The notes under the pieces were generated by a model. That model did not search any database, was not told the DNA's origin, and was given only the letters and a program-made list of their open reading frames with translations. This document shows, piece by piece, positions 10,301-24,773 of a stretch of 64,000 nt of DNA (positions are counted from its first letter, which is position 1; every line of letters starts with the position of its first letter). Position numbers and translations under genes: made by a program. Source of the stretch: Mollicutes bacterium Phil14 (GTDB lineage Bacteria; Bacillota_I; Bacilli_A; ML615J-28; CAG-698); assembly GCA_001940985.1 (NCBI GenBank), contig MSHB01000022.1, positions 35,393-99,392 on the forward strand, read 5' to 3'.

Positions 10301-11976
10301 CCATAATCACTATTATCACCAACTAAAGAAATAGTTGAGTCTATAAAATTAATATTTTTAATTGTTCCCTTGTTTATACCTACTAATCCATAATACACTT
10401 CTTTTTCTGTATAGTGAGAAGTAGTAATATTTAAATTCAATATACACTTATTATTATTGGTATTTGAATCTAAAGAAAAATCATCATCTCCACCTTTTAA
10501 AACTCCTTTAAATTCCGTTTTAGGAGTAGGATAATTAACATTTTTCATATCTATGTTATTATTTAAAACATATGTATGTTCATTAAATTGCTTTCCATAT
10601 GTTTTGCTTTTTAAAGATAAAAGTTTTGAAAATGTAATTAAATCAATATCTTTCTTTATCAAGTAACAATTATTACTTTCATCATATTCTAATCCAAAAA
10701 TTTGAGGCAAACTATCGCTTGCATAGAAATGCCATATTCTCTCATCATTTATTCCCTTTGAACTTAAGCTTACACTATTAATGTTTATATTTTCACCAGT
10801 AGTTATTTTTTCACTACTATATGCGCTTATTCCCAAAACATCAAGATTATCAGTACTAATCAAATCATCGTTATAGCAAACCCCACTAATCTCCCCACTG
10901 TTTTCGCAGACAATAGGATAACTTTTAAATAAATAACTTGAACCACTACTTACTACCCTTTGACTAATGTAATAGGAATTATAAATCTTACCTGTTTTGT
11001 TATTTTTATTTACTAAACCACTAGCATAAAATGTTTGTGTTTGTACTGCTCCTAATTGCAAATTCCAAATAATACCTGAATCATCCAAAGATACACCTGA
11101 ACTAATTTTAGTGCGTTTATCTATAACTGCAGTATTATAAACTAATCCATTATTTTCTCCAACCAAAATTGATGTATTAGTTAATCCATCAGGAATATCT
11201 AATAATTCAAAAATAGGATTTTCAATTATTAAATTGCAAATTATTCCACTTTCACCAACACTTGCAAACATTGAATAATAGTTATTAAGTGCAATATCTA
11301 CTTCTGTACTTTGATCATCTTGATTAAATCTGTAAATCATTGATATATAGTCATATCCAGCCAAATATAAATTCTTTATTTTAAAACCATTACCATCAAA
11401 ACTTCCCGTGAATGGATAATAGTTTCTAGTTTTTTCTTCATCAGGAGTAATAAAATCAATTCCTAATGGAATAAATTGTTTTGACTTCATTTTCGAATAA
11501 TCAATATCATTTATTAAACAATAATTAAAACTTAAAATTGTTTTTATTGTTTTTAAATTTGGATAAATATTAGCTGTTGCTTTATTTTTCCAATTATAAC
11601 AAGCATCAACTGATAGATAGTATAACTCTTCAGGAGTTGATATCGTTACTCGTTTGTCTAAAACAAACTCATTTATTTCATCACTCATTTTTTCATCTCT
11701 AACTGAAGATGATAAAGATGAATCATTCATATACTTCTCAATTATATTATGAATACTATTGTAATCTACCATCTTTTCACTACTAGTAGATTCACTATTA
11801 ATTAAAGCATTAAAAAAAGAAAAATCATTACTAAATTTACTATCAGCAGATACTTTTATGCTATTACCTTTATCAATGAATACACATAAAAATATAAAAA
11901 CAATGATGATAAAAGTTAACAATAATCCTAAACTTTTCTTTGAAATATTTTTAAAATTCATATTAGCACCTACCAA
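4327..11976 (-). CDS. Giant (2549 aa) N-terminally anchored or secreted surface protein. It is rich in Ser/Thr/Asn/Gly and has many G-G-(I/V)-(V/I)-G-type repeats. Putative beta-helical adhesin or matrix protein.
   Basis: Uninterrupted 7.65-kb ORF with an N-terminal hydrophobic signal or anchor (LGLLLTFIIIVFIFLCVF). It has dozens of motifs such as VAGGIVG, CIGGIVGYGSG, YYGGIIGGSS, CAGGIIGN and YVGGVFG. There is no LPxTG motif and no C-terminal TM. Its start overlaps the stop of the upstream TasA-like gene by 7 nt, indicating co-transcription. Confidence 0.8.
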   Translation of the reverse strand: MVGANMNFKNISKKSLGLLLTFIIIVFIFLCVFIDKGNSIKVSADSKFSNDFSFFNALINSESTSSEKMVDYNSIHNIIEKYMNDSSLSSSVRDEKMSDEINEFVLDKRVTISTPEELYYLSVDACYNWKNKATANIYPNLKTIKTILSFNYCLINDIDYSKMKSKQFIPLGIDFITPDEEKTRNYYPFTGSFDGNGFKIKNLYLAGYDYISMIYRFNQDDQSTEVDIALNNYYSMFASVGESGIICNLIIENPIFELLDIPDGLTNTSILVGENNGLVYNTAVIDKRTKISSGVSLDDSGIIWNLQLGAVQTQTFYASGLVNKNNKTGKIYNSYYISQRVVSSGSSYLFKSYPIVCENSGEISGVCYNDDLISTDNLDVLGISAYSSEKITTGENININSVSLSSKGINDERIWHFYASDSLPQIFGLEYDESNNCYLIKKDIDLITFSKLLSLKSKTYGKQFNEHTYVLNNNIDMKNVNYPTPKTEFKGVLKGGDDDFSLDSNTNNNKCILNLNITTSHYTEKEVYYGLVGINKGTIKNINFIDSTISLVGDNSDYGKVIYAGIVSAYLSSGNIKNITNRVNENTNYFDFSNSGLGKTCIGGIVGYGSGNISYVCNLNGAIDGSATHNYTDYNTSLEYYYGGIIGGSSEKGLRVEYAYNNANIKTINNVITENEVVICAGGIIGNMNNNSETSNEYFYLTNDGSINGAIDNSASANIYVGGVFGKSNNGIKISKNNRDLISGRFENNGIIVSKYNASTKNYLAGIGVNTSDISKVSFSYMINNAGFEIENYNSYNNNRNIYYSSTILDNGNGIILSRAYNEASYTYDSTFFNESVESINISSFFMSVNDKECELLYCQNNGNITIDGGENNVNGEMKVAGITLANKVDYKNVSMCGNIIVNGICNNKDIYISGISWILPSLNNKTYKAINCINEGKIITSNISGNTSISGVSGTSQTSTSFRATINSNNLYVAGLFNLNVGSITNSMNRADITSDDGNGATIIGTCNTFVGGIVTFNYNFIQDCANSGDITYINSSSGTTYVAGGDTPNCLYGGLVFAYNGGLALGGVVSAMADTSATILAGYSDEVVEPAQIVDSSNNGNISGKANQYVRSGGILAVALGVELTAGTASIDSSNNGQKKFSWCTVGNGDRIANCKLSNGLNFGNITAISNKIGNLDGTRVTSGQNNGSGTSQGRRPGIFACSGGVISYGLCIMTRMLNHGVIVSTDVAGGIVGATYVLGSADTSNLTITYCNIDTAIHYGKVKAAKYSNYSNFTYTVLKDITNSNYMNNSSDTSYIYKDENTFIFPSQSVSLSLYPNARRGFGGIFGRLQRGNSGVMQSNNFVNILNMDSKVDMIGRVDGSSYGAYIFYRLKVTGKEDTYYSARSNDTTQALVVGYTTGSTTTSELVNALTDSDIKSITITRSFWGNNYTYRITSVTLDSLEYEEITTSTRRYAPYNENINGNNYTSNYATETVQRTVKKQSSDNKTISLNTTINGNVVVSGNTSVSNLNYSSNRATVTNPSNVASLLQNNISIGSNSSSSTISQYQIEIVTDDKSDTSKTYIFSDSFPLMDSEQANYIYAASNDVLADRFKNETSLNYKPNGMYVLATTKGRDAGDVLPGNLKIDDLYKLNEKDEIKYIDLSNVSSKDLIDSGLNVEEMLLDYKSMFQISYSDKSLIQQKDDNGSTLYDLVLYDKNNNSPILRGGLVGSDEYGLPTITFTVSNSAFNFVNNKTDLNYYVKSAVLSENAVIAKYGITANEHHDFRNYYNLRSSNVLDGIYEASISGTLTKNSRLEFEDKIRVYSEIACNVSSLVEKYVTDYKIIIECVSEELSVDFSAVVDSASSIVDSITNGYIIKNNVSPDGKVECLFTDNNGVLASEYELSVIGLYRENTLIDSAYYKLEIVKLNNRQFGFTISFSNKLISGEYEIRYRYYDNIIEDYSIFITKEKSQYYNITNVFYNTFSYDISGNILEFLEEKDTDFITYIQFGYMFSKVKYGLTNSIDLTIETINNLEEISYLNNVDSYVIKIDDTEIERIYVSEFSKLIKTSVYYTYTNGNREYVMTYVIENEVGSINTIVHRIVEREPDNIVVYKNNNIQYGTTFIVYREDLLTTFDIDFGFEIDREVLNGQIKMLLDEIVFDEEEMKSKIYLNIGTYYSVNITSLLEPGSKGYKFILVRDGEEKEMLSIVIDKLLGKSAYLEDIDFQLDSDTTLVYPNIYEVDMLGNKISNTLYDARTYYGGIDYDGADNDNVRYFRIDGKVTNISLDDYSPSFTNPIGSSIYRYTGSNWDGSDTNNWSTELKGDFIGNDEEKDTVILYKIVSEDGESTVYYFITASDILYNLTIRFTIYYRFANGNIVLGSDPSSPIKNQVVVITIKNYQLQGDLADYSVTIDPNDPNHIIYPYEASELDKEGITKYITGLNNQMSMFYYPIDATKYQYSFGRNYSGCYGFTAITPKYKGESNGTLINGRRYEYDIYLATGSKGTYGWNSDSYKLHDLDLNNKYDGKYHFISGSTKNRIREFALVVNEKTSGGNWGLTDEDISWDK

Positions 11977-12680
11977 TCAGTGTCCCAAGGGGTTTTTTCC
12001 AAATCCCAATTATTTTGTGCCCCATCATAATATTGTACTGCTTCGATAATAAATCCAATTTGAAGAAAATATCTACTATCTCTAGTACCAAACATTTTAT
12101 CCGAATAATATTCTTTAATTAAAGGAATTACTAAAGGAGAACTTTCATTAACTCTCTTTACTTTTTCCATACAATAAATAAAGCCATCTTTTTCTCTATT
12201 ATCATAAAATAGGCCACTACTAGATGATTTAAAATTATAATTAAAATCTGTATACCCATCTTGTACAACAGCTAATTCACGAGTAACATCTCCAGTTTTA
12301 TAAAGTAAAGTAAGCTGTTCATATGTAGCAACTCTAAAATATGTATCAACATCACTATATACTTCAACATCAACTCTAAAATTTTCAGCAAAATATATAT
12401 CATCACGAGCAGATATATTAATCTTCACAACTCCAGTTTTAGTAAAATCACTATCTCCTAAATCAGCAGTATAATAAACGGGATCATATATATTACCATC
12501 CTTTTCAAAATAGGTTTTTAATCTTACCTTAACAGTCCCAATGACATACTCTTTATTTTCATTAATTCTACTAGTAATATAAGCAACTGTAGTGCCTACA
12601 AATAGCAAAAAGAATAGTACAATAGCACCAAACATTACTGCCTTTTTAAATCTTAATTTATTTATAATCAAAACAGTCAC
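11970..12680 (-). CDS. Secreted protein with a SipW-cognate-type N-terminus (TasA/camelysin-like paralog).
   Basis: 236 aa. N-terminal basic region, hydrophobic helix, then GTTVAYITS (compare TasA GGGTWAAFND and CalY GGGTFAYFSD). Overlaps the giant gene start. Confidence 0.5.
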   Translation of the reverse strand: MTVLIINKLRFKKAVMFGAIVLFFLLFVGTTVAYITSRINENKEYVIGTVKVRLKTYFEKDGNIYDPVYYTADLGDSDFTKTGVVKINISARDDIYFAENFRVDVEVYSDVDTYFRVATYEQLTLLYKTGDVTRELAVVQDGYTDFNYNFKSSSSGLFYDNREKDGFIYCMEKVKRVNESSPLVIPLIKEYYSDKMFGTRDSRYFLQIGFIIEAVQYYDGAQNNWDLEKTPWDTDW

Positions 12681-12767: not shown

Positions 12768-13268
12768 TCATTCATCCTTTTGATGTGTTTTTAACAATTT
12801 GTATAATGAATTAAACAAAATCACTAGTACAACAATTATTGCTATTGACAATATAACGAAAGGATTTCTAATAAAATTTATTATAAATCCTAATATAGGA
12901 ATTGAAAAAGCATATATACCTTTTACTTGGCTAGCCTTTATTGGGGCATCATTAGCACTATTTTCATCTATACCTTTAGTTATTATTATATCTTTTTCTT
13001 TATCATAACTAATAACTCGATGAGTAACTGCCTTTCCATCTTCTCTTTCATAAGTTATAATAGTATCATTTTTTATTACGTCATAAACATCACTTTCAGA
13101 AATCTTTTTATAATACATAAGCGAACCTGTATAAATACGTGGTTCCATACTACCTGAAAGTACAATTTTTGCGCGATAATTACATATGTATAATCCTAAA
13201 GAAAATACTATTATAACTGCAAAAAGTCCTATTAATATATATTCAACAATATTTATTACTTTTTTCAT
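12768..13268 (-). CDS. sipW: Signal peptidase I, SipW (ER/archaeal) type.
   Basis: 166 aa. N-terminal TM, catalytic Ser box VLSGSMEP (near-identical to the Bacillus subtilis SipW box), a His box (THRVIS) and a C-terminal TM anchor. Confidence 0.8.
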   Translation of the reverse strand: MKKVINIVEYILIGLFAVIIVFSLGLYICNYRAKIVLSGSMEPRIYTGSLMYYKKISESDVYDVIKNDTIITYEREDGKAVTHRVISYDKEKDIIITKGIDENSANDAPIKASQVKGIYAFSIPILGFIINFIRNPFVILSIAIIVVLVILFNSLYKLLKTHQKDE

Positions 13269-13278
13269 TTTTACTTAT

Positions 13279-13881
13279 CTATTTTGCAAGCCCTGTTGTA
13301 AAATCAATATTTGCCATATTTTCCCATAAAACATATTCTGCTTGTTTTCCTTCAACTACAATAGTAATTGTATATGATTTCCCAGAATAATCATTTCCTA
13401 CTTTGCTTCCATCAAAAGTCATATTTACATTAAAATTTAAAACATCACCAACAGAAGGAACTGTAGCAGCACTAATATTAGCACTATCATCAGTTAATGA
13501 AGTAGGTTTTCCTTTATAATACCAGTAATCACCATCATTTACCCAATCAGAATTTTCATCAAAAGTTATTTCAACTATATCAGTTATTAAATCTGTTTTA
13601 TCTTTTTCAGTAACAGTTATTTTCACTCTTACGTTTGTAGCTACAGTTGATTTATTAGTAATAGTAATAGCATCAGCATTAAAAAGAGGTTGACCAGGTA
13701 CTACTATACTATCACTATTAATATTAAACTGACATTCGTAATTAACATCACCCATAACAAAGTTAATGTTTGAAGTCTTTGTGTCTGTTAACCATGCTAG
13801 AGTTGTTGCTACAAGACCAGCAAGCAAAACAACAATAGCACCACTTAAAAGTATAATTTTCTTTTTTAAATTCTTTTTCAT
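13279..13881 (-). CDS. TasA/camelysin-like secreted protein (SipW-cognate signal peptide).
   Basis: 200 aa. N-terminus ...LLAGLVATTLAWLTDTK. The C-terminal strand TIVVEGKQAEYVLWEN resembles the TasA C-terminal FSFEATQWNG. Confidence 0.6.
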   Translation of the reverse strand: MKKNLKKKIILLSGAIVVLLAGLVATTLAWLTDTKTSNINFVMGDVNYECQFNINSDSIVVPGQPLFNADAITITNKSTVATNVRVKITVTEKDKTDLITDIVEITFDENSDWVNDGDYWYYKGKPTSLTDDSANISAATVPSVGDVLNFNVNMTFDGSKVGNDYSGKSYTITIVVEGKQAEYVLWENMANIDFTTGLAK

Positions 13882-13892
13882 ATTTTTTCCTC

Positions 13893-14501
13893 CTAAGAAA
13901 TATCTATGGCAAAACCTAATTCATTCCATTCAACATAATCTTTTTGTTTTGCTTGAAAAGCTATTTTTATTATTAATTTTACATTTCTGTTTCCCATATT
14001 ACCATAGTTGTCACCATTAACACTTAAACTTTCTAGTACCGTGATACTTGTGCTTTCAGAACCCTTTATTACACTACCACTAATACTATCGCCATCAATA
14101 ATTCCACCATAATACCAACATCCTTTAAAATAAACCCAATCATCACCAATACTAGCTTTTATTTGTTGATTATTGGTATCATCAAATCCATTCCACTTCT
14201 CATTATCAATTGGACTATTTGCATCAGTAACAAATTGATAAAAAAGTTGAAACCTTATTTCAGAATCCACACTACTATGATTTGTTAGTATATATGGGTC
14301 ATTAATCAATGGTTTTTCAGGAACAATATAATCTTGTTCACATAAATTACCAACCAAATCATAACGAACTTCTCCACTAACAAAAACAATAGAGCTACTT
14401 CTTCTTAAAGAAATAAGCCATGCATATGAAGATGTGGCAAGCGTTATAGCTAAAATGAAAAGTGCTATTATGCTAATCAAACTTTTAGCATTTCTTTTCA
14501 T
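13893..14501 (-). CDS. TasA/camelysin-like secreted protein. It is the first gene downstream of c-di-GMP riboswitch copy A.
   Basis: The ORF track gives 13893..14534, but the first 11 codons would lie inside the riboswitch aptamer. An internal ATG at 14501-14499 is preceded by GGAGGA (MKRNAKSLISII...). N-terminus ...LAITLATSSYAWLISLRR. C-terminal IKIAFQAKQKDYVEWN. Confidence 0.6.
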   Translation of the reverse strand: MKRNAKSLISIIALFILAITLATSSYAWLISLRRSSSIVFVSGEVRYDLVGNLCEQDYIVPEKPLINDPYILTNHSSVDSEIRFQLFYQFVTDANSPIDNEKWNGFDDTNNQQIKASIGDDWVYFKGCWYYGGIIDGDSISGSVIKGSESTSITVLESLSVNGDNYGNMGNRNVKLIIKIAFQAKQKDYVEWNELGFAIDIS

Positions 14502-14502
14502 A

Positions 14503-14600
14503 CAATCCTCCGTTTTCTGGCGACTGGCTGTCATACACTAATTAGCTTCAGACCCTATAGTTTTGCGTCATCACTTTTCAGTGATTTTGCCTTTTTCTTT
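14503..14600 (-). promoter_or_regulatory. c-di-GMP-I (GEMM) riboswitch, copy A.
   Basis: Minus-strand RNA AAGGCAAAAUCACUGAAAAGUGAUGACGCAAAACUAUAGGGUCUGAAGC...GACAGCCAGUCG. It has GGCAAA, a perfect 6-bp hairpin capped by a GAAA tetraloop, then GACGCAAAaCUAUAGGG (receptor-like). This matches the Vc2 pattern GGCAAACCAUUCGAAAGAGUGGGACGCAAAGCC. About 75% identical to copy B at 23141-23215. Confidence 0.8.
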
Positions 14601-15242
14601 TTTTATATCCTCAAGTATTTTTTTCCTGATTTTTTCTCTTTCTGCTTCAATAAATTTTTGTTTTTCTTCATCATTTTTCTTATTTTGACTAGCGATTTTT
14701 TCCTCTTTAACCGCTATAAACATTTTTCCTATTTCAATGATTAAAAGAAAGAAAAACAATAACATTAAAATTAAAAATATTAAACTTCTGTGATTTGCAA
14801 TTAAACCACCAATTTTAAACAGTGTTAAAACCTTAACAACTTTTCCCACATAATTTTCCTTAGTAACAAACTCTGTATCAAAAGTACTATTATTAACACC
14901 TTTCATAATAAACGAACCATCTAAATTAACATCAACAATTCTATGAACTATATATATCTTATTGCTTTTTGAATAATAAATAATATCATCACCAATTGTT
15001 AATTTTTCAAATGGCACTTCTTTTGAAAGAATGAAATCACCTTCATTTATTACAGGTTCCATTGAATCAGTTGGTACAACCGAATATATATAACCAAATA
15101 TTTTTGTAGGTTTGTTGTTTTTATAAGCATTAATTCCAACGATTATTATGGCAATAGCCAAAACAAACAATAAACAAGTAAATATCCCTAAGCATTTGCT
15201 GATGATACTTTTTACTTTAGGTTCTTTCATACTATTCACCAA
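14571..15242 (-). CDS. SipW-type signal peptidase I paralog with a C-terminal TM and a charged tail.
   Basis: 223 aa. N-terminal TM, VVPTDSMEPVINEGDFIL Ser box, IVHRIVDV His box, then a second TM (LIFLILMLLFFFLLII) and a K/E-rich tail. The last about 10 codons overlap the riboswitch A aptamer. Confidence 0.7.
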   Translation of the reverse strand: MVNSMKEPKVKSIISKCLGIFTCLLFVLAIAIIIVGINAYKNNKPTKIFGYIYSVVPTDSMEPVINEGDFILSKEVPFEKLTIGDDIIYYSKSNKIYIVHRIVDVNLDGSFIMKGVNNSTFDTEFVTKENYVGKVVKVLTLFKIGGLIANHRSLIFLILMLLFFFLLIIEIGKMFIAVKEEKIASQNKKNDEEKQKFIEAEREKIRKKILEDIKKEKGKITEK

Positions 15243-16017
15243 TACTATTATCTATTATCAAATTTTTAATAACTAATCTTTGATTAGAATAAAACCTGCC
15301 ATCAAAAGATATATCACTAGGAATAATATCTTGATATATACTAGGAAAAATGGGTTCTGGTTGAAACTTTACTGTAAAATATAGCACTACATTTTTGCCA
15401 GCTTCTAATTTAAAATCTTTTAGTAAATAATAATTAGTTAAATCCTCGCCTTCACTATTAATAGTGTTAAAGTATGTAAATTCAGGACTAATCATACTAT
15501 TAGTTGTAATCTTTTTCCATCCCCATTCCTCAATTTTTTCATCGCTTGGAACAGTGATTAATTCATTTTCTTTTTCTTTTATTTCTGTTTTATACGGAAC
15601 TTCAACAAGCAAATCGCATCTATAACTATATGAATATTGTATCTTTTCATAGGCATTTTGATAATCACTTGTAAAGACTCCATCATTAAATCTTTCAGAA
15701 TGCAAATCAGAAAAATAAACATTTAAATTACAAACATCTTTACTTGTATTAGAAAGTATCAAAAGAAATATATTCATCTCTCCTGGCATCGCTTTTTCAG
15801 CAGTATAAGTATCAGATTGAATAATATTGTTACCTATAACTTGTGAGAACTGATATTCATAACCGTTTTCTCCAACACTAGCCACAAAGCTAGCACTATT
15901 ACTTTTAACAGTTACAAACCAAGCATAACCAACACTAACAAAAGCTATTAAAGATAATATGCATGAAAACAAGGCCATTAAAAACATTTTATTTTTAAAC
16001 ATTTTTCTCATCACCAT
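15232..16017 (-). CDS. TasA/camelysin-like secreted protein (SipW-cognate N-terminus).
   Basis: 261 aa. N-terminus ...LIAFVSVGYAWFVTVKSN. Overlaps neighbours at both ends. Confidence 0.55.
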   Translation of the reverse strand: MVMRKMFKNKMFLMALFSCILSLIAFVSVGYAWFVTVKSNSASFVASVGENGYEYQFSQVIGNNIIQSDTYTAEKAMPGEMNIFLLILSNTSKDVCNLNVYFSDLHSERFNDGVFTSDYQNAYEKIQYSYSYRCDLLVEVPYKTEIKEKENELITVPSDEKIEEWGWKKITTNSMISPEFTYFNTINSEGEDLTNYYLLKDFKLEAGKNVVLYFTVKFQPEPIFPSIYQDIIPSDISFDGRFYSNQRLVIKNLIIDNSIGE

Positions 16018-18010
16018 TTTGGTCCTTATTCATTAGTTTAATTAATTTATCTTTATTTTTGCTTTTTTCTTCGTTAGCTTTTTCAATTTCTTTTTGTTTC
16101 AATTCTTTTCTAACTTTTTCTGTTTGTGAGCGAGATTTTTCTTTTTCTTTCAACTTAAATTCTTTAATTTTTTTATCTTGAATTTCTTTTTGTTTTAATT
16201 TCTTTTCTTTTTTAGCCTTTAAGATTTTATCTAAATTAGCTTTTTCCAAAGCAATAATATCATTAACTTTCTTTGAATGAGCAGCTTGCATTTCTTTAAT
16301 TTTTTGTTTAGTTCTTTCTTTTTCATTTTTACTAATTTCACGCATCTTCTCTTTCAAAGTATCATTTATTAGTTTAAGACTATTCTTTGAGTCTTCCTTA
16401 GCCTTAACAACCTTTATTTTTTTACCATCTAAAGTTACCACACTAGAAGTAGCTTTAGCCTTAGCTTTTTTGTATATATCTATTTCTTTATCTAAATTAT
16501 TCTTAACTTCAAAAATAGCATCTTCATTGGTTTTTCCTTCTAAACTTTTAATAAGTTTAGTACTGGCTTTAGCCATATCTTTATTAAGACGTTTCTCAAG
16601 TCGAATTGCATTGTTATAATCAACTTCTTTTACTTCTCTAATTATCTTAGCAATTTGAGCTTTCTTTTTCGTTTCATCAAACTCTTCTTTAGGATCAACA
16701 TCCTTAACAAGTCTTGTAAATATATCTTCGTCTTCTAATTCAAAATATGATTGATATAAAGCATTAGATATATTATTCACCATGCGAATTGCTTGCTTTA
16801 ATGCAACTTCATCACTTGATGCTGTTTTTTTAAATTCATCTATGTTTTTCTTAAACATATTTTTATATTGTTTTAAATAATATTCATTTATACTATTATC
16901 TTCCTTAGAAAGTACTTCTGGATTAGTGATGATATCATCTTCATTTTTCTTAATCTGTTTAGCACTTTTCTTAATTGTCTTTTCATCACTCTTACCATCA
17001 AACTTTGTCTTTCTAACTGATTCATTAGCCTCACTAGAAAGATAGGCAAGCATTGCTGTTTGATTAAATCCATGTTCTATTTTTTTATCTATTTTTTTGT
17101 TCTTTTCTTTTACTATCAAATCATATGCCAACTTATTATATTTATCTAAAAACAACCACAACATATAGCAATTTTTAAAATCAGGATTTTTCATAATAAT
17201 ATTTGTTTGCATAATTGGAGGATTAACTTTAGGGGCATTAATCAATTTCTTGTATAACTCGGAATTTTTATATGCCATTATCATACGATTTAATTTTTCA
17301 ACACGCTTTAGTAAATATAAATTATTTTTTTCGTTTTGACTATTAACAGTTTTCTTGATTACCACATCAACATTTATATTTACCGAAGCATTGTTAATGT
17401 TAAAGTCAGACGATATATTAACATGATTTTTGTTTGATGATAAAACATTATCTTTAATAACATTGTATCTGTTATTTACAAAAACAAACAATCTATCTAT
17501 CAATGTTTTAATAAATCTATTTTCATAAATTGAGAATTCTTGTTCCGCATAACTTGTTAAAATCTTTTTGGGAATTACGTAATTTCCATCTCTTACTTCT
17601 TTTACAAAATGTGTATGTGAAGCAAGATGTCTTACTGATTCAGAATTAATTTTCTTAGCCTTTTCAACAGGAACTATTTCTTGCTCATATCTGATTCCTG
17701 TTTTAGGAGTGTTTGCAATCTTATCAATACTTGGAAAATATGATTCTAATGTTTTTATCCATTCTTCATCAAAAACTTTTGTTTCAATAATATCTTTTTG
17801 ATATATAACTCTATCACCAGATAAATATGAATCATAGAAAAGTTTGGCAAAAGCACTATCCACTTCTAATTCATCTAAATTAGTAGAAACTGTCTCAAAA
17901 TATTCATCTATATCCAAATCATCTGAATTTAAATCTAAAGGAGTTGCCTCACTTTCTTCTTTTTCTTTTTCGTTAACAAAGATATCGTCCATAGCAACCT
18001 CCTTAAACAA
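15995..18010 (-). CDS. 671-aa acidic, coiled-coil protein. Partner of the adjacent McrB-family NTPase. Function unknown.
   Basis: Acidic N-terminus (DLNSDDLDIDEYFE), a central globular region and an extremely K/E-rich predicted coiled-coil C-terminal half. No signal peptide. It sits 6 nt downstream of the AAA_5 gene. Confidence 0.6.
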   Translation of the reverse strand: MFKEVAMDDIFVNEKEKEESEATPLDLNSDDLDIDEYFETVSTNLDELEVDSAFAKLFYDSYLSGDRVIYQKDIIETKVFDEEWIKTLESYFPSIDKIANTPKTGIRYEQEIVPVEKAKKINSESVRHLASHTHFVKEVRDGNYVIPKKILTSYAEQEFSIYENRFIKTLIDRLFVFVNNRYNVIKDNVLSSNKNHVNISSDFNINNASVNINVDVVIKKTVNSQNEKNNLYLLKRVEKLNRMIMAYKNSELYKKLINAPKVNPPIMQTNIIMKNPDFKNCYMLWLFLDKYNKLAYDLIVKEKNKKIDKKIEHGFNQTAMLAYLSSEANESVRKTKFDGKSDEKTIKKSAKQIKKNEDDIITNPEVLSKEDNSINEYYLKQYKNMFKKNIDEFKKTASSDEVALKQAIRMVNNISNALYQSYFELEDEDIFTRLVKDVDPKEEFDETKKKAQIAKIIREVKEVDYNNAIRLEKRLNKDMAKASTKLIKSLEGKTNEDAIFEVKNNLDKEIDIYKKAKAKATSSVVTLDGKKIKVVKAKEDSKNSLKLINDTLKEKMREISKNEKERTKQKIKEMQAAHSKKVNDIIALEKANLDKILKAKKEKKLKQKEIQDKKIKEFKLKEKEKSRSQTEKVRKELKQKEIEKANEEKSKNKDKLIKLMNKDQNGDEKNV

Positions 18011-18015
18011 AACAA

Positions 18016-19572
18016 TTAGCTATTTTTAATAAAATTTTGAATACAATTAATACTTTCTAAGCAAGTATTTTTACCAAACAATTTGTCAAGTAAAGTAATT
18101 AATTGATTTAATTCTTCATGTAAGAAACTTAAATTTAAAGTTTCAAATTTTCTTATAACTTTATATGCCAAAAAGTAATCTAAACCTTGAACATCAGTTC
18201 CACCACACGCTACATAAACTGGAACAAATGTATTAATTTGTTTCATAATACGATTACCAAAAGTTATCTTAAACTCTTTAGTAATAAATTCATCTAGTTT
18301 TTGAATCTTTTCCACTAATTTCGCATCAAGTGGATATGCTTTTATTCCTTCTTGAAAAAGGTGCTCCATATATTCATAATTCATATTAACATTTTCTGTG
18401 TATGGTGCATCAATTAATTCAGCACGGGCATCCATTTCAATAGTTGTTGCACGATCATAAACTTTATCAGTAATTGTAAATGTTGAATCATCACGGTTAG
18501 CTGTACCAACAAACCAAACATTTTGAGGAATCAATAATTTTCCATCAACTAGTTTCTTAGGATCATTTGCTAAAGTATCTGGAACCAAATCTATTTTCCA
18601 TTCATTCTTATCTGGCATTTCCATTATTGATAAAAACTCAGCAAAATAATACTCAATTCTAGCTAAATTCATTTCATCTAAAATAATGAAATTCATATCA
18701 TCGCGATAGCTAGTTTCATAAACAGCTTTCAAAAAATCAGTTTCATTAAACTTTTTAGTGAATTCATTCAAATATCCAATTAACTCAGTTCTATCTCTCC
18801 ATGAAGGTTGAACAGAACAAATTGCCGCATCGTTTTTAAAAAACTTTCCCATCGCATACGGTAAAGATGTTTTACCAGTACCAGATATACCTTGTAAAAT
18901 CAAAATTTTGCTTGTGGCAAGTCCAGCGAAATATGCTCTAATAACTTTTTTATCATAATACAAATGTAATTGTGACGCTGAAAAATTAATAAATCTATTA
19001 ACTAATTCTTGTAAATTAAGCATATCATCAGGTCCCATCATAATTGATGTAATCTTTGTTTTGTATTCTTCATCAACAGCACTAAGTTTAATAAATCTTA
19101 AATCGCTAACAACTTTTTTGTCTTTAGACATTTCATTAGTAAGATTTTCTTCATCACTTTTTTCAGAATAATTATTCACACCACCAAGACCTAAATTAGA
19201 AACCTTTAATGCTAAAATCTTATTCTTTTCATCAATCAATTCTGCAGTCTTAGTATTTAATTGTGATACTTCTTCTAATAAGTCATCTTTCTCTATTTCT
19301 CTTCTTACAAATCTAACATATCTTCTAAGAATTTGGAAAATTCTCAAACCTAAGAAAATAAAGAAAGCAACTATTATAAGCATTGTAATAATTTCACAAA
19401 TCCAATCAAGAGCATTAAACTCATTACTGCCATTGATTAAATCTTCAAAATAACTAACAATATCTTTAAAAAATGCATGAGAAAATGCCTCCCATAATCT
19501 TACAAAGAACATCTTGAAATTATAGAAAAATGTTCTTAAAAAACCTATGAAATACCTAGCGAAGTTTACCAT
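18016..19572 (-). CDS. Membrane-anchored McrB-family (AAA_5) GTPase/ATPase.
   Basis: 518 aa. N-terminal TM (ITMLIIVAFFIFLGLRIF). Walker A ILQGISGTGKTS. McrB-type Walker B with NxxD region FIILDEMNLARIEYYFAEFL (compare McrB IDEINRANxxxxFGEL). Sensor motif VWFVGTANRDDSTFTITDKVYDRATTIEM (compare McrB IIGTMNTADRS). Confidence 0.7.
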   Translation of the reverse strand: MVNFARYFIGFLRTFFYNFKMFFVRLWEAFSHAFFKDIVSYFEDLINGSNEFNALDWICEIITMLIIVAFFIFLGLRIFQILRRYVRFVRREIEKDDLLEEVSQLNTKTAELIDEKNKILALKVSNLGLGGVNNYSEKSDEENLTNEMSKDKKVVSDLRFIKLSAVDEEYKTKITSIMMGPDDMLNLQELVNRFINFSASQLHLYYDKKVIRAYFAGLATSKILILQGISGTGKTSLPYAMGKFFKNDAAICSVQPSWRDRTELIGYLNEFTKKFNETDFLKAVYETSYRDDMNFIILDEMNLARIEYYFAEFLSIMEMPDKNEWKIDLVPDTLANDPKKLVDGKLLIPQNVWFVGTANRDDSTFTITDKVYDRATTIEMDARAELIDAPYTENVNMNYEYMEHLFQEGIKAYPLDAKLVEKIQKLDEFITKEFKITFGNRIMKQINTFVPVYVACGGTDVQGLDYFLAYKVIRKFETLNLSFLHEELNQLITLLDKLFGKNTCLESINCIQNFIKNS

Positions 19573-19599: not shown

Positions 19600-20391
19600 T
19601 TACTCTTTTATTTCTTCATTTTTTTCTTTTTTTTCCAATTCTGCTAGAAGTTCAGCACGCATCTTTTCTTTTTCATTTTCTAATTCAGCTTTAATGCGAG
19701 CAAGTTCATCTTCATGTTCCTTCATCATTGTTTCTTTATTCTTATGATTTTTAATTCTTAAAAAATTCATTACAAGCATTATTGCTTCAAAAACAAAGAA
19801 CAATGCCGTTGGCAATACTATACAAAGCAAGAATCCATTTGATGTTTGCAAGAACTTCATTGTATTGCCTGCACCAGTCCATTTACCAGTATAAACAGCT
19901 TTAATATCTTCATATGATATAGTTTCAAATTTAGCACTACTTAAGTTATCAGGATCATATTTGTATGCAGGGTTCATAGCATATTTATCACCTTGAGTTC
20001 TTATATATTGCTTACCATCACTACCTGTAGAAAAATCTACAATTCTGTGGGTATTAAGAATTGTTCTTCCTATCTCATCAGAATAATAGGCAAATGTAAC
20101 TATATCTCCAATTTCTAATTTACTAACTATTTTTTCTCTATTTTTTTCAGTTATAACTTTAACAAAGATTAAATCTTTTGGAGTAAATGAATCTTCTTCT
20201 TCTCCATCCATTGACGAAGTTTGAACTGTTAAATATCCTTTACCAAAAATACTTGGAATATCTAATTCAGTCTTCATTCCTAAATTACTAATTGAAAATA
20301 TTAATAATATTGCAACGAATAGATAAAACACACAATTCAATACAACACTAACAACCTCCCACCATTTTTTTTCTTTTTTCTCTTCTAACAT
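19600..20391 (-). CDS. Divergent SipW-type signal peptidase paralog with a C-terminal TM and coiled-coil tail.
   Basis: 263 aa. N-terminal TM, Ser box YLTVQTSSMDGEEED (the SM is retained but the usual EP is replaced by DG plus an acidic insert), His box NTHRIVDF, then a TM and a K/E-rich coiled coil. Confidence 0.6.
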   Translation of the reverse strand: MLEEKKEKKWWEVVSVVLNCVFYLFVAILLIFSISNLGMKTELDIPSIFGKGYLTVQTSSMDGEEEDSFTPKDLIFVKVITEKNREKIVSKLEIGDIVTFAYYSDEIGRTILNTHRIVDFSTGSDGKQYIRTQGDKYAMNPAYKYDPDNLSSAKFETISYEDIKAVYTGKWTGAGNTMKFLQTSNGFLLCIVLPTALFFVFEAIMLVMNFLRIKNHKNKETMMKEHEDELARIKAELENEKEKMRAELLAELEKKEKNEEIKE

Positions 20392-20419
20392 ATTGTCCTC
20401 TTTCTAAAACGAAGTTTTA

Positions 20420-20454
20420 TGTATAACAGAGGCAATTAAATGCTTCTGTTATAC
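20420..20454 (-). promoter_or_regulatory. Intra-operon stem-loop (13-bp stem) between the TasA-like genes and the downstream SipW paralog.
   Basis: Minus-strand GUAUAACAGAAGC-AUUUAAUU-GCCUCUGUUAUAC with one mismatch. No U-tract follows, so it is a candidate partial terminator, attenuator or processing site. Confidence 0.35.
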
Positions 20455-20478
20455 ATATTTAATTTTTAAAATATTTTA

Positions 20479-21381
20479 TTAATTTTCACCTAATGTTAAA
20501 CCTAATTTTACTGATAAAATTTGTTTGTATAATGCGTTAATGCAATCATAATCATATCCTTCAAGCCATACAATTACTGTAACTTTTGTAGCTGTTTTTG
20601 AAACAGTACCTAATTTTATATCAGCAGTTCCATTAATTGCTTGTGTAGTATAATTAGTTGAAGCAGGAATATTTGTACTAGTAATTTCAGTTCTAGCCTT
20701 TAAGTAGCCCATTGCTCCAGTTGTATCAGTGTTTGTTTGTAATCCGGCTGTATTATCATTTTGGCCAGCGCCTTTTTCTAAAATAACAGCAGTATTAGTT
20801 CCTAATTTCACCATAACTCTAGCGGCGTTACTAACTTTAAATTTTTCTGTTGCTGTACCTTGCTTAATATCATCACCAACAGTCTTATCAGGTGTCCAAG
20901 AAGAGTTATTACCAGCACCTTCAGTAATTAAAGAATTTGATAAATCTAAATATAATTCTTCTGTATCTTTAGAAGAATCTTGAGCTAATCTAACAGAAAA
21001 TTCTAATTTTAAAATACCAGCAGTTCCTAATATATCTTTAGCATCAGCTAAAGTTCCAATATCAGTTAATGATGCAGATTTTTTTACTGAATCAATTGCA
21101 AATTTTTTAAATTTGCCGTCATTATATGTAACATCGTTAAATGAAACAAAGTTTGCGCTCTTTAAATTAGTGAAATCATCAGAAGTGATTGAAGTTTTCC
21201 AATTAGTATCATCTATACTTACTTCAATACTTCCATCACCAGCTTTAACGCTACCTTCAAATGGATCTACAGAAGCAGTTCTACTTACTACTAACCATGC
21301 ATAAGTACTTGTTCCTAATGCTATAACTGCAAATGCTACAGCAAGACATGCAATAAATAATTTTCTTGATAATTTTTTCAT
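20479..21381 (-). CDS. TasA/camelysin-like secreted protein.
   Basis: 300 aa. N-terminus ...AVIALGTSTYAWLVVSRTAS. The C-terminal VIVWLEGYDYDCINALY motif is shared with the 329-aa and 232-aa paralogs. Confidence 0.6.
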   Translation of the reverse strand: MKKLSRKLFIACLAVAFAVIALGTSTYAWLVVSRTASVDPFEGSVKAGDGSIEVSIDDTNWKTSITSDDFTNLKSANFVSFNDVTYNDGKFKKFAIDSVKKSASLTDIGTLADAKDILGTAGILKLEFSVRLAQDSSKDTEELYLDLSNSLITEGAGNNSSWTPDKTVGDDIKQGTATEKFKVSNAARVMVKLGTNTAVILEKGAGQNDNTAGLQTNTDTTGAMGYLKARTEITSTNIPASTNYTTQAINGTADIKLGTVSKTATKVTVIVWLEGYDYDCINALYKQILSVKLGLTLGEN

Positions 21382-21411: not shown

Positions 21412-22401
21412 TTAATAAGTTTTTTTAGGGGAATAACTTGAACCCATAAATTTTAATTGAACCATTACATTATCTGCAAATATTGCATTAAAGCAATCTG
21501 CATCCCAACCTTCAAGCCATATGTTAACTTTTACTTTTGCTACGTAACTTGGTGTGCCGTCACTATTTATAACTTTTTGAAACCTTGCACACATTGAATC
21601 ATCAGTTTTTGCCTCATATGGATTTTTAAATGTTGTTAGAGAATACTTGGTGTTTGGATATTCTTTAGGAGGATTAAGAATAGTCAATCTTTTTGAATAA
21701 TACTCAAAAGCTCCTGTTTGTACTCCATAACCCATTTTTTCATTTTCACTCGGATCATAAATAATCGAAAGCAAATCTTCTTTTTCATTAACACCAAACT
21801 CATTTTCCAAATTTTCTTCTATGATTGCAATTCTTATTGCGTTTGCAGCATAGTAAGACCCAATTGAACCCTTTTTTATATCTTCTTCTCCATAAGAGAA
21901 GTCAATATCAGATACCCATTTAACCCCCTTCGACACAACAAATGTACCATCAACTTTTTTTGTTTTTGCAATTTCATATGTTATTTCATGACTAACATTA
22001 TCCACCAAAAACAATTCTTTACTTGTTGGATTATCTGTTTTAAACCATAAATCAAAAGATATATAATTATCTTTAGCATCCTTGATTTCTTCACCTTGTT
22101 TAGTAAAGAATTTCTTTCCATCAAGCGAAGTAACATTATATAACTTCGGATTTTTACCAATGATTTTTTCTAAATCTTCTTGTTTTAAACATTCAGAATA
22201 ATTCTTTCCATCAAGTGATACATAAAAACCCGATTCCGCTATAACATTAAGTTGTGCATCTTCAAGTAGCGCTTCATTACTCAATGTTATCCAAGCAAAT
22301 GTTGCTTGACTAAATGCTAAAAACGAAAACATTACTGCGAAAAGTGAAAAATAAAATTTTCTTGTTATATTTTGAATTATATTATTTTTCATCTTTCTCA
22401 C
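21412..22401 (-). CDS. TasA/camelysin-like secreted protein.
   Basis: 329 aa. N-terminus ...FLAFSQATFAWITLSNE. C-terminal VNIWLEGWDADCFNAIF. Confidence 0.6.
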   Translation of the reverse strand: MRKMKNNIIQNITRKFYFSLFAVMFSFLAFSQATFAWITLSNEALLEDAQLNVIAESGFYVSLDGKNYSECLKQEDLEKIIGKNPKLYNVTSLDGKKFFTKQGEEIKDAKDNYISFDLWFKTDNPTSKELFLVDNVSHEITYEIAKTKKVDGTFVVSKGVKWVSDIDFSYGEEDIKKGSIGSYYAANAIRIAIIEENLENEFGVNEKEDLLSIIYDPSENEKMGYGVQTGAFEYYSKRLTILNPPKEYPNTKYSLTTFKNPYEAKTDDSMCARFQKVINSDGTPSYVAKVKVNIWLEGWDADCFNAIFADNVMVQLKFMGSSYSPKKTY

Positions 22402-23080
22402 CAGAATCGATTGCTGAGAATTTCATTTGAATCTTAATCTGACCACCTAATATATCACTTGTTGTATCAGGATCTTGACCTTCTAGCCACATAAATACTG
22501 TATATTTTATTACTTGGTCAGGAAAGAAACCATAAATCTTATCACGCATTATCAATCTTTCATTAACAAATTCTAAACAATCAGGGATATCTTCATACTG
22601 TGCTTCTTTATCATCTTTTGCCATAAATAACATTTCTCGAGAGACACCATCAATTTCTGTAATCACCATAAACCTTATTGCTTTATCAACATTTTTCTTA
22701 ACAGAAGTTATTTGAACATAATAACGCAAATCCGTTGACTGACTACCAAAATTTTTAACATAGAAAGTATATGCCAAATATTTAAAATTTGGATCATTAT
22801 AACTTCCTTCTGCTTTCTTAGCTTCTTCAATATTTAGCATCGTGTATGTTATATCTCTAGCATCGTAAACCGCATCAGCTTGTATTAAAGAGCTAGGATT
22901 AATAAAATCTTTAGTCTGTGACATATATATTTGTTTTTCTTTTAAGTCAGGATCAATTGACATAACAAAATTACCAACATTAGATCCATAAAATGTTAAT
23001 ACTGCAATTATAACTAGTGCTATTCCAAAAACAGTTATTCCCATTTGAAGAAACTTTTTATTCTTAAAAAATGCATTCAT
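22382..23080 (-). CDS. Secreted or anchored protein of the same paralog family (shared C-terminal motif). It is the first gene downstream of riboswitch copy B.
   Basis: 232 aa. N-terminal TM. C-terminal YTVFMWLEGQDPDTTSDILGGQIKIQMKF aligns with the IWLEGWDxDC motif of the 300- and 329-aa paralogs. GAGGTGGTGAG ribosome-binding site. Confidence 0.5.
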   Translation of the reverse strand: MNAFFKNKKFLQMGITVFGIALVIIAVLTFYGSNVGNFVMSIDPDLKEKQIYMSQTKDFINPSSLIQADAVYDARDITYTMLNIEEAKKAEGSYNDPNFKYLAYTFYVKNFGSQSTDLRYYVQITSVKKNVDKAIRFMVITEIDGVSREMLFMAKDDKEAQYEDIPDCLEFVNERLIMRDKIYGFFPDQVIKYTVFMWLEGQDPDTTSDILGGQIKIQMKFSAIDSGEKDEK

Positions 23081-23087
23081 TATGTCT

Positions 23088-23217
23088 CACCACCTCACTT
23101 GAAACAAAAAAGCCAGAAATCTCCACAAAAAATTTGAGATAACTGGCTACCATTTCAGGCCCTATAGCTTTGCGTCACAACCTTTCGATTGCTTTGCCTT
23201 TAACATATACGCTTATT
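23088..23217 (-). promoter_or_regulatory. c-di-GMP-I (GEMM) riboswitch, copy B, with a terminator-type expression platform.
   Basis: Minus-strand aptamer AAAGGCAAAGCAAUCGAAAGGUUGUGACGCAAAGCUAUAGGGCCUGAAAUGGUAGCCAGUU. It contains GGCAAA, a hairpin with a GAAA loop and GACGCAAAGCUAUAGGG. Then comes the hairpin GCCAGUUAUCUC...GGAGAUUUCUGGC followed by UUUUUUGUUU. The terminator's 5' arm overlaps the aptamer's 3' end. Confidence 0.85.
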
Positions 23218-23243
23218 ATACTATGTTTTGGGCTATTTGTCAA
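23215..23243 (-). promoter_or_regulatory. Near-consensus sigma-A promoter (TTGACA, 17 nt, TATAAT) driving riboswitch B and its operon.
   Basis: Minus-strand TTGACAaatagcccaaaacatagTATAAT. The riboswitch GGCAAAG begins about 16 nt after the -10 element. Confidence 0.7.
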
Positions 23244-23280: not shown

Positions 23281-24753
23281 TTAATCTTCTTCAGTAGTTT
23301 CAATATTTTCTTCTTTCATAATTGGAGAAATTAAGCTCTTTAAACTTCCTTCATTATTAATGTAATTTACTACATCTTCTTGAGGAAGAGGTTTAGAAAA
23401 ATAAAATCCTTGAGCGTATTCAATACCAAATTTTTTAATTTTTTCAACTAATTCGTAGTTTTCTATTCCTTCACAAATAATAAATTTGTTACTGCTTTTA
23501 GCCAAATCTACTAATAGTTCTATATACTTATCTTGAATGAAAGACTCCTCATAGTCAAAAAAAGTTTTATCTAATTTAATAATATCTATAGGAGAATTAC
23601 CTAGTTTTACTAATGTCTTTTGATCAAGACCAACACCATCAACTGCTACTTTGAAACCAAGTTCTTTTAAGTCATTAATATTTTTATATACTATTTCATG
23701 ACGTTCAAACATCGCAAACTCAGCAATTTCAATTGTAATTGCATTAACTGGTATTTTATACTTTTTAGCAACATTTTGGAAAGTAACACCTAAGTTTTCA
23801 CTCACTAATTGTTTGGGGCTTAAATTAAATGATAATTGTAAATTTTTATGAATAAATTGCTTTTTAAGTTCGATATACTCTCTTATCAAAGCTTCAATTC
23901 CCCATATACCAACACCATTAATATCACCTGACTGTTCTAAAATATTAATAAAACTACCTGGATATAAAATACCTAGAGTTGGATGCTTCCACCTAAGCAG
24001 TGCTTCAAATCCATAAATATTATTTTCAGAAATGTTGATAATTGGCTGATAATATAAACAAAATTGATGTTCTTTTATCGCTTGTTTAATTTCATAATAC
24101 AATTGTAAATTTTCAGTATCATTTTTATCGCATTCATCACTATAAATAGTTACATTATTTCCACCACTATTTTTACAATTGAAAACAGCTAAATCTAAAC
24201 TTTTCATTAATTGCTTTAAATTGTGTCCATGATTAGGATAGAAGGCAACACCCACACTTATAGTTGGATTAATGATTGTATCAGAATATATCTTTATATC
24301 AACAGATGCCGCCTCACAAATTTTATTGGCACACTTTAAAACTTCATTTTTATCATAATCTTCTTTAACTAATATTAGAAACCTATCGTCACTAATTCTA
24401 CCAATTAAAGTCCTATTAGGTAAAACACTTCTAATATTTTTAATACTCTCATTTAGTACCTTTTTTCCATTTCCTTCACCAAAAGCATTTTGGATTTCTG
24501 TCATCTTATCATAATCAATCAAAATTAGAGAAAAGAACATATCACTAGGTAATTTGCTAATATAACTGTTTATTGAAGATATTATTTCATTTCTCTTTAA
24601 TACTCCTTCAACAAGACCCGCAACTTCGTTGTGATAATTATGTTTTTCCTTTTTCACTTTAATATATAGTAAAACACCTAAACCGGCTATTATCAATAGA
24701 GCAATCACTGAAAATAAAACATATGCTCCACTATTCCAATTTGCTAAAAACAT
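23281..24753 (-). CDS. Membrane-anchored protein with a degenerate GGDEF domain and an EAL domain. Possible c-di-GMP phosphodiesterase or c-di-GMP-binding regulator.
   Basis: 490 aa. N-terminal TM. The GGDEF position reads RISDDRF (degenerate). The EAL domain has YYQPIINIS...GFEALLRW, but the DDFGTG metal-binding motif reads DGVGLD, so its activity is uncertain. Confidence 0.75.
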   Translation of the reverse strand: MFLANWNSGAYVLFSVIALLIIAGLGVLLYIKVKKEKHNYHNEVAGLVEGVLKRNEIISSINSYISKLPSDMFFSLILIDYDKMTEIQNAFGEGNGKKVLNESIKNIRSVLPNRTLIGRISDDRFLILVKEDYDKNEVLKCANKICEAASVDIKIYSDTIINPTISVGVAFYPNHGHNLKQLMKSLDLAVFNCKNSGGNNVTIYSDECDKNDTENLQLYYEIKQAIKEHQFCLYYQPIINISENNIYGFEALLRWKHPTLGILYPGSFINILEQSGDINGVGIWGIEALIREYIELKKQFIHKNLQLSFNLSPKQLVSENLGVTFQNVAKKYKIPVNAITIEIAEFAMFERHEIVYKNINDLKELGFKVAVDGVGLDQKTLVKLGNSPIDIIKLDKTFFDYEESFIQDKYIELLVDLAKSSNKFIICEGIENYELVEKIKKFGIEYAQGFYFSKPLPQEDVVNYINNEGSLKSLISPIMKEENIETTEED

Positions 24754-24773
24754 AACTTTTCTCCTTTTTGTAA

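Follow-up and report, generated by a model that had tools for sequence, protein, structure and literature searches.

In McrBC, the DUF2357 domain of McrC is inserted into the hexamer of McrB, and hydrolysis by McrB is stimulated. The canonical systems of E. coli and T. gammatolerans (PDB 6hz4, 6ut5, 6ut6) consist of an AAA+ GTPase with an N-terminal DNA-reader and a McrC with a PD-(D/E)xK nuclease, encoded in the order B then C in a defence-island setting. Here we analysed a related gene pair of Mollicutes bacterium Phil14, located within an operon for secreted proteins and signal peptidases in a 64,000-nucleotide stretch of contig MSHB01000022.1 (positions 35,393 to 99,392 of the forward strand; hereafter the window). 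The pair, encoding an NTPase of 518 amino acids (aa) and its partner, shares with canonical McrBC the fold and motifs of the AAA+ GTPase, the DUF2357 partner and the gene order, but a transmembrane (TM) helix and a coiled coil take the place of the DNA-reader, the partner has no nuclease, the signature is N-x-D-D as in the NxD clade, and the genes are chromosomal, syntenic and vertically conserved in a secretion or fibre operon. On balance we consider it probable that the pair forms an NTP-driven platform at the cytoplasmic face of the membrane, coupled to the flanking peptidases for processing or assembly of fibre subunits.

The closest described class is CoCoPALM, a large clade in the NxD branch of McrB GTPases, defined by a GTPase fused to an FtsB-like TM and coiled-coil domain, an adjacent McrC homologue and signal-peptidase genes in the operon; after the NxD motif there is usually an E or another D (Bell et al., eLife 2024; PMC11090510). 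One paragraph was given to the class, with its analysis deferred to a forthcoming publication, and CoCoPALM, Acholeplasma, FtsB and signal peptidase are not mentioned in two supplementary files of the same paper. From its sequence, the window pair is assigned to this named but uncharacterised class because a McrB-like AAA+ domain, the NxD motif followed by D, an adjacent DUF2357 protein and signal-peptidase genes were all found. The likeness extends to the N-terminal TM segment and coiled coil of the GTPase, the helical or coiled-coil extensions of the McrC homologue, and the occurrence in Bacillota; no feature contradicts membership, FtsB homology being the one defining feature that was not reproduced. 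Beyond the published paragraph, we find that the operon encodes TasA/camelysin-like substrates of SipW type and a giant surface protein, that GGDEF-EAL genes are conserved beside it, that the nuclease is lost completely, that the McrC-like and SipB genes can be lost together or fused, and that the system is widespread in wall-less Acholeplasmatales and in Izemoplasmatales. In the literature we found no paper that joins McrB-like proteins to TasA, mcrB appearing together with SipW only as a strain genotype, and nothing on PDC-M26 or on the corresponding operon of Acholeplasma laidlawii.

The coiled-coil nuclease tandems (CoCoNuT) always contain HEPN or another nuclease and often a helicase, and have long soluble coiled coils (PMC11090510). 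Among plasmid sequences, the nearest relatives of the NTPase are GTPases of about 800 aa, 37-38% identical over the AAA+ domain (E 3e-65), each followed by a DUF2357 protein and one also by a helicase-related gene. Because of these neighbours, their long N-terminal extension and their GTAN[HQ]DE motif, they appear to be CoCoNuT-like, and they are the nearest relatives of the NTPase outside its own family. Coiled-coil extensions, and a McrC nuclease that is often lost or inactive, are further points in common with CoCoNuT; the window operon differs in having no nuclease or helicase, a membrane-anchored NTPase and signal-peptidase partners.

The operons tapA-sipW-tasA of B. subtilis and sipW-bsaABC of C. 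perfringens (PMC11580942) likewise combine a SipW-type peptidase with paralogous secreted beta-sandwich subunits carrying SipW-type signal peptides. They contain no NTPase. The window operon has the McrBC-derived pair, a giant protein and three peptidases, of which two carry long tails in the cytoplasm; the sequence similarity of the window subunits to TasA is marginal. Four genes form the conserved core of the operon:

19600..20391, minus strand: SipA, SipW-type signal peptidase directly upstream of the NTPase gene (NCBIfam SipW, 2.4e-10)
18016..19572, minus strand: predicted McrB-type AAA+ NTPase, 518 aa
15995..17992, minus strand: predicted nuclease-less McrC homologue, 665 aa
14571..15242, minus strand: SipB, SipW-type signal peptidase, likely starting at the ATG at 15230

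Both open reading frames (ORFs) of the pair are present on the minus strand where a first-pass annotation, made from the sequence alone, had placed them. The NTPase is composed of an aromatic-rich N-tail (residues 1-55), a TM helix (about 58-82), a basic patch, a coiled coil (about 90-125) and the AAA+ domain. The TM helix of the earlier description was thus confirmed, as the sole strongly hydrophobic segment, except that it does not lie at the extreme N-terminus but follows the 55-aa tail. Directly after it comes RRYVRFVRRE and then a heptad-like stretch to about residue 125; the TM and heptad-like segment is kept in the 27 sequences compared. In all orthologues a TM helix is found at about residues 50-70, with a net charge of -0.9 before and +2.4 after it. 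These topology signals point to an NTPase tethered by a single TM helix, with the N-tail outside and the AAA+ domain at the cytoplasmic face. Searches of the N-terminus against Pfam and PDB gave no DNA-binding domain, and a profile of the N-module matched only generic coiled coils in PDB, DivIC being matched by 1 of 27 sequences at E=0.013.

The motifs described earlier, Walker A (GISGTGKTS, residues 228-236), Walker B (ILDEMNLA, 297-304) and GTANRDDS (356-363), were found as such and are near-invariant: both Walker motifs are intact in all 82 orthologues, and GTAN[KRNQ]DDS is present in 75 of the 82. N359-R-D361-D362 is invariant among 33 aligned homologues. The signature aligns without gaps to the GTAN[HQ]DE of the relatives at 37-38% identity; NRDD taken alone is also readable as NxxD, and the phmmer alignment to NTAD of E. 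coli McrB is likewise gap-free. The AAA+ domain of E. coli McrB is matched by residues 205-399 (phmmer against PDB sequences, E=4.4e-5), and the PADLOC model PDC-M26A matches at 7e-38. Homology to McrB is supported by these matches, although nothing in Pfam or NCBIfam was above cutoff and AAA_5 remained sub-threshold (E=0.025). As judged from these matches, the protein is predicted to be a McrB-type AAA+ GTPase of the NxD clade with intact catalytic motifs.

The partner ORF may be read as 671 codons from a TTG (15995..18010, minus strand), the length reported in the first pass. Its true start is predicted to be the ATG at 17992, giving 665 aa, because this ATG sits 7 nucleotides (nt) after AAGGAGG and identical proteins in the database are annotated with 665 aa. 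Translational coupling of the pair had also been proposed; the two genes do not overlap but are separated by a gap of 23 nt, which holds the partner's own Shine-Dalgarno sequence, and it is the last 23 nt of the partner gene that overlap the start of the next gene, T4. The protein consists of an acidic N-tip, a DUF2357 N-domain (about 48-250), a helical region (about 300-480) and a Lys/Glu-rich tail (481-665; 28% Lys, isoelectric point [pI] 9.8). Of the earlier wording "acidic, very K/E-rich", the second half holds; the whole protein has a pI of 9.15 and is acidic in its first 30 residues only. The tail is called helical or coiled coil from its composition.

DUF2357, the N-terminal domain of McrC, was detected by Pfam at residues 93-179 (3.3e-10, above the gathering score), and was the only Pfam domain found, with no PD-(D/E)xK nuclease. 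In an AlphaFold2 model of residues 1-480, built from 31 homologues (mean predicted local distance difference test score 74, about 80-90 over residues 30-330), the part after the N-domain, from residue 215 on, is helical with a single short strand, and no alpha-beta-beta-beta-alpha-beta nuclease core is present there. No conserved D...(D/E)xK was observed across the 31 aligned homologues. Ten distant homologues searched with Pfam gave DUF2357 in four, Rho_N in one, Peptidase_S26 in one and a nuclease in none. The DUF2357 match, the helical model, the missing motif and the nuclease-free distant homologues together argue that the partner is homologous to McrC but no longer has a nuclease. The absence of a PD-(D/E)xK motif noted in the first pass was upheld by Pfam, model and alignment; the homology to McrC had been missed there, as had the existing name of the arrangement, CoCoPALM. 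A PDB sequence search with the partner gave no match, and no PADLOC model matched it. Rho_N (PF07498, SAP/HeH-like) ends the McrC homologue of A. laidlawii (L001:11552-13885, 777 aa) and the orthologues P0190, P0195, P0204, P0210 and P0222, which hints at binding of nucleic acid or another ligand by such tails.

The distribution of the pair was analysed by a scan of species representatives (one genome per species), in which at least 590 stretches were confirmed and 80 loci at 44-68% identity were kept; operons were compared over a set of 82 related loci. The 80 loci belong to Acholeplasmatales, Izemoplasmatales, Anaeroplasma, Christensenellaceae, Oscillospiraceae, Ruminococcus and Lachnospiraceae. 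Because full-length homologues occur in hundreds of genomes (44-90% identity), the pair is not a chance arrangement. In a library clustered at 50% identity, 755 clusters match the NTPase at E<=1e-30, of which only about the first 20 are full-length including the N-terminal module. Full-length NTPase homologues of about 60% identity are found in A. laidlawii, A. hippikon, Peloplasma and many metagenome-assembled genomes (MAGs) of Acholeplasmataceae, and the entire operon is syntenic in A. laidlawii and Peloplasma. By group, NTPase identity is about 53-68% in Acholeplasmataceae, 48-51% in Izemoplasmatales and 44-53% in Clostridia, and roughly tracks taxonomy. Within the operon, identity to A. 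laidlawii is highest for the NTPase (61%), followed by the McrC-like protein (48%), the peptidases (33-40%) and the secreted proteins (24-34%). Four MAGs (L004, L007, L020, L058) go under the names Bacteroidales, Staphylococcaceae or Treponema; since their NTPases are 53-63% identical to that of the window, mistakes in binning or naming are a more probable cause than real phyletic spread.

Over the 82 loci, the pair recurs with SipW-type genes and TasA-like proteins, the co-occurrence that the earlier annotation had suggested looking for, in the order T1, T2, T2 or T3, SipA, NTPase, McrC-like gene, (T4), SipB, often preceded by two GGDEF-EAL genes and followed by a giant gene. The gene immediately upstream of the NTPase encodes a peptidase in 58 of 68 evaluable loci, the one downstream a McrC-like protein in 65 of 71, and a second peptidase gene lies at most three genes after the latter in 48 of 50. 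In six operons (L022, L027, L028, L029, L035, L036; for instance L022:9276-20649), exactly the McrC-like and SipB genes are missing from an otherwise unchanged gene order. L035 and L036 share their MAGs with the full operons L008 and L021, the NTPase copies within each MAG being 64-66% identical. In a Ruminococcus sp. MAG (RGIG6565, JAFXNC010000023.1), the two genes are joined in frame (L082:7353-10307, plus strand), the product consisting of the McrC N-domain, a long E/R/K-rich helix, a TM helix, Peptidase_S26 with SMEPS, a TM helix and a K/E tail; this fusion is a possible Rosetta-stone link between the McrC-like protein and SipB. Joint loss in six loci and one fusion are evidence that the two may be functionally coupled and act together.

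The remaining features of the cluster and its surroundings are as follows:

23281..27347, minus strand: pair of GGDEF-EAL membrane proteins of 490 and 857 aa, encoded just upstream of the operon
23215..23243, minus strand: perfect sigma-70-type consensus TTGACA-17-TATAAT upstream of T1, a consensus match only
22382..23080, minus strand: T1, first operon gene, 232 aa, membrane-anchored or secreted, detected in 55 of 82 loci
21412..22401, minus strand: T2, 329-aa secreted beta-sandwich protein, weakly TasA-like
20479..21381, minus strand: T3, 300 aa, paralogue of T2
20418..20457, strand unassigned: 17-bp hairpin inside the 87-nt T3-SipA spacer
15232..16017, minus strand: T4, 261 aa, secreted, signal peptide ending in YAWF
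13893..14534, minus strand: T5, 213-aa secreted protein of the TasA/camelysin-like family
13279..13881, minus strand: T6, 200-aa secreted TasA/camelysin-like protein with a signal peptide of SipW-dependent type
12768..13268, minus strand: SipC, third SipW-type signal peptidase, 166 aa, short tail
11970..12680, minus strand: T7, 236-aa secreted protein of the T5/T6 family
4327..11976, minus strand: giant surface protein, last gene of the cluster, 2549 aa, N-terminal signal or anchor
215..1336, minus strand: further GGDEF protein near the start of the window, in the downstream flank

The operon, in the order T1, T2, T3, SipA, NTPase, McrC-like gene, T4, SipB, T5, T6, SipC, T7 and giant gene, thus encodes seven secreted or membrane-anchored proteins, three peptidases and one giant surface protein besides the pair. 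The peptidases are of the archaeal/ER type with a Ser-His catalytic pair; SipB and SipC score above the cutoff of TIGR02228 (81 and 78.9 bits) and SipA below it (33.8 bits). The catalytic Ser and His were found in the alignment in 68 of 69 SipA and all 61 SipB orthologues, from which both are predicted to be active enzymes. A role as inactive chaperones, like SipA of S. pyogenes, was considered and rejected, as the catalytic residues are conserved. SipA has two TM helices and a K/E-rich cytoplasmic C-tail of about 50 aa; among orthologues, these tails have a median length of 46 aa (SipA) and 37 aa (SipB), with about 40% K+E.

Signal peptides of SipW type are present on six of the seven T proteins, T6 scoring 20.2 bits against TIGR04088 (SipW-dependent signal peptide; cutoff 19). 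Pfam Peptidase_M73, the camelysin/TasA family, was matched by 2 of 17 members of the T5/T6/T7 family (best E 3.3e-6); a T5-T7 profile gave only noise against PDB, and PDB profile, Pfam and Foldseek searches with the T2 family gave no match. The label TasA-like seems reasonable for T5-T7 and tentative for T1-T4. T1, T2 and T3 have in common a C-terminal W-L-E-G-x-D motif, whose W295, E297, G298 and D300 do not vary within the T2 family. Unlike the other T proteins, T1 does not carry the A-[WY]-[LFI] cleavage-site motif and may for this reason stay membrane-anchored as a possible base of the fibre. The giant protein has no Pfam domain; its N-terminus holds a hydrophobic anchor, and its sequence abounds in repeats of N, S, G and I. 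Many related loci have a syntenic giant of 1.1-2.5 kaa (thousand aa). The window protein could serve as an adhesin or as a surface protein associated with the fibre.

We suppose that the proposed platform would work as follows. By analogy with McrBC structures, the NTPase would form a membrane-tethered hexamer, into which the DUF2357 domain of the McrC-like protein would insert and stimulate hydrolysis. The charged helices of the NTPase, the McrC-like protein, SipA and SipB could join all four into one membrane complex, as their genomic context suggests. Hydrolysis of NTP would then drive or gate the processing, membrane extraction and polymerisation of fibre subunits, and perhaps also display of the giant protein, under control of cyclic di-GMP (c-di-GMP). 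Such an arrangement would resemble the hexameric ATPase and prepilin peptidase of type IV pili. This resemblance to type IV pili and type II secretion is one of working only, namely a cytoplasmic NTPase at the membrane (a presumed hexamer here), a dedicated peptidase and subunits with hydrophobic leaders encoded in one operon; there is no homology, as the NTPase belongs to the McrB clade of AAA+ proteins and not to PilB/GspE, a Ser-His peptidase of SipW type stands in place of the aspartyl prepilin peptidase, beta-sandwich subunits stand in place of alpha-beta pilins, and no PilC-like platform is present. A wider proposal is put forward only tentatively: the pair could be the engine of an unrecognised class of surface-filament machinery. 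A membrane-tethered GTPase hexamer, activated by a McrC without nuclease, physically coupled to two SipW-type peptidases and controlled by c-di-GMP, would supply the power to extract and polymerise TasA-like subunits and to display a giant adhesin. The machinery would be old and passed on vertically in wall-less Acholeplasmatales, in Izemoplasmatales and in several Clostridia, and a restriction enzyme would have become the motor of a pilus.

Several observations weigh against a motor of this kind. To our knowledge, TasA-type fibres polymerise by donor-strand exchange without any known NTPase, so that a motor may be unneeded for polymerisation. Six operons have neither the McrC-like gene nor SipB, and the McrC-like subunit is therefore not always required in cis; the fusion of the two is known from a single MAG, in which an assembly error is possible. 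We infer the hexamer, the complex of the pair with the peptidases and its coupling to fibre assembly, including the binding among the four core proteins. We found no follow-up on CoCoPALM in the literature and know of no experiment on any member of the class, and the FtsB/DivIC homology of the N-module claimed there was not reproduced with HMMER. On much of the same ground, gene context and conservation included, one might propose a quality-control or regulatory AAA+ machine, in which control over the two peptidases lies with the membrane-tethered hexamer and its McrC-like adaptor, and fibres polymerise spontaneously; gating of substrate access, clearing of cleaved signal peptides or stalled precursors, and a c-di-GMP-responsive checkpoint are variants. 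It would agree with the NTPase-free assembly of TasA-type fibres (PDB 8aur was the top match), with GGDEF-EAL genes conserved beside the operon, and with the dispensability of the McrC-like protein and SipB in six operons, as fits an accessory layer. We nevertheless hold it unlikely. Of all the operon's proteins, the NTPase shows the highest conservation, and it is kept even where the McrC-like protein and SipB are lost, which argues for a central rather than accessory role, and no PilZ or similar c-di-GMP-binding domain was detected in either protein of the pair.

Descent from a DNA-translocating restriction GTPase raises the question of a function linked to nucleic acids, retained from McrBC. 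The hexamer and the Lys-rich tail of the McrC-like protein would then bind DNA or RNA, coupling the fibre to uptake or export of DNA (such as extracellular DNA of the matrix) or tethering nucleoid or mRNA at the assembly site. The composition of the tail and the Rho_N ends of the A. laidlawii protein and several orthologues are in line with it. Tail charge is not conserved, however, being basic in 33 and acidic in 15 of 50 McrC-like orthologues; the NTPase has a TM helix and a coiled coil at the position of the DNA-reader and no DNA-binding domain, and neither competence nor nuclease genes are present in the operon, so that we regard this function as quite improbable. Pili are common phage receptors, and a true anti-phage pair of McrBC type might sit in the pilus operon or guard it. 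The match to PDC-M26A would fit such a defence pair, as would the nearest relatives outside the family, which are plasmid-borne, of the NxD clade and CoCoNuT-like, one with a helicase gene. Against this stand a partner with neither a nuclease nor another effector nor a PADLOC match, a position fixed in the same operon in 82 loci of several orders, identity roughly following taxonomy, and the lack of close plasmid or phage copies, all such matches being below 40% identity and confined to the AAA+ domain. No defence-island character was seen in the neighbourhood, where ftsH, hpt and tilS lie upstream beyond the GGDEF-EAL pair, and sugar-metabolism genes, maf and a GGDEF gene form the downstream flank; no nuclease or helicase domain was found in any gene across 4327 to 27347. 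Defence is the least likely of all the readings, and we give it very little credence. Of the two readings offered in the first pass, a repurposed AAA_5 motor is borne out by synteny integral to the operon in 82 loci, the housekeeping flanks and the nuclease-less partner, and a McrBC-like defence pair inserted in the operon is contradicted by the fixed linkage to SipW-type genes and the missing nuclease. Neither outcome that the annotation had named as contradicting its proposal was observed, since the partner showed no nuclease and the pair is always linked to SipW-type genes.

If the function proposed for the platform is true, the pair would represent a clear exaptation of a defence-system motor, McrBC, for cell-surface biogenesis, and an NTP-dependent step would be added to the assembly of TasA-type fibres, currently thought to need none. 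For wall-less Acholeplasma-like bacteria, of which we know no described pilus or fibre system, it would also indicate what their main surface structure is. The joint loss and the fusion of McrC-like and SipB genes yield concrete predictions that can be tested. A specialist aware of the 2024 census would not be surprised by the existence of the arrangement itself.

With about 27% GC, the window is rich in A and T, and its ORFs of 120 aa or more are all on the minus strand with a single exception; the closer analysis covered positions up to 32,000. The GGDEF-EAL pair adjoins the operon also in A. laidlawii and in Clostridia loci. Conservation of such genes beside the operon suggests that the fibre system may be controlled by c-di-GMP, in a mollicute-related lineage. 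As read from the sequence, the consensus upstream of T1 is likely the operon promoter. Terminator-like sites were found between SipC and T7 and after the giant gene. The hairpin of the T3-SipA spacer, which is followed by a weak T-run on the minus strand, may be an attenuator or an mRNA-stabilising element. Together, promoter match and hairpin suggest that T1-T3 would be transcribed strongly, with attenuated read-through into the machinery genes.

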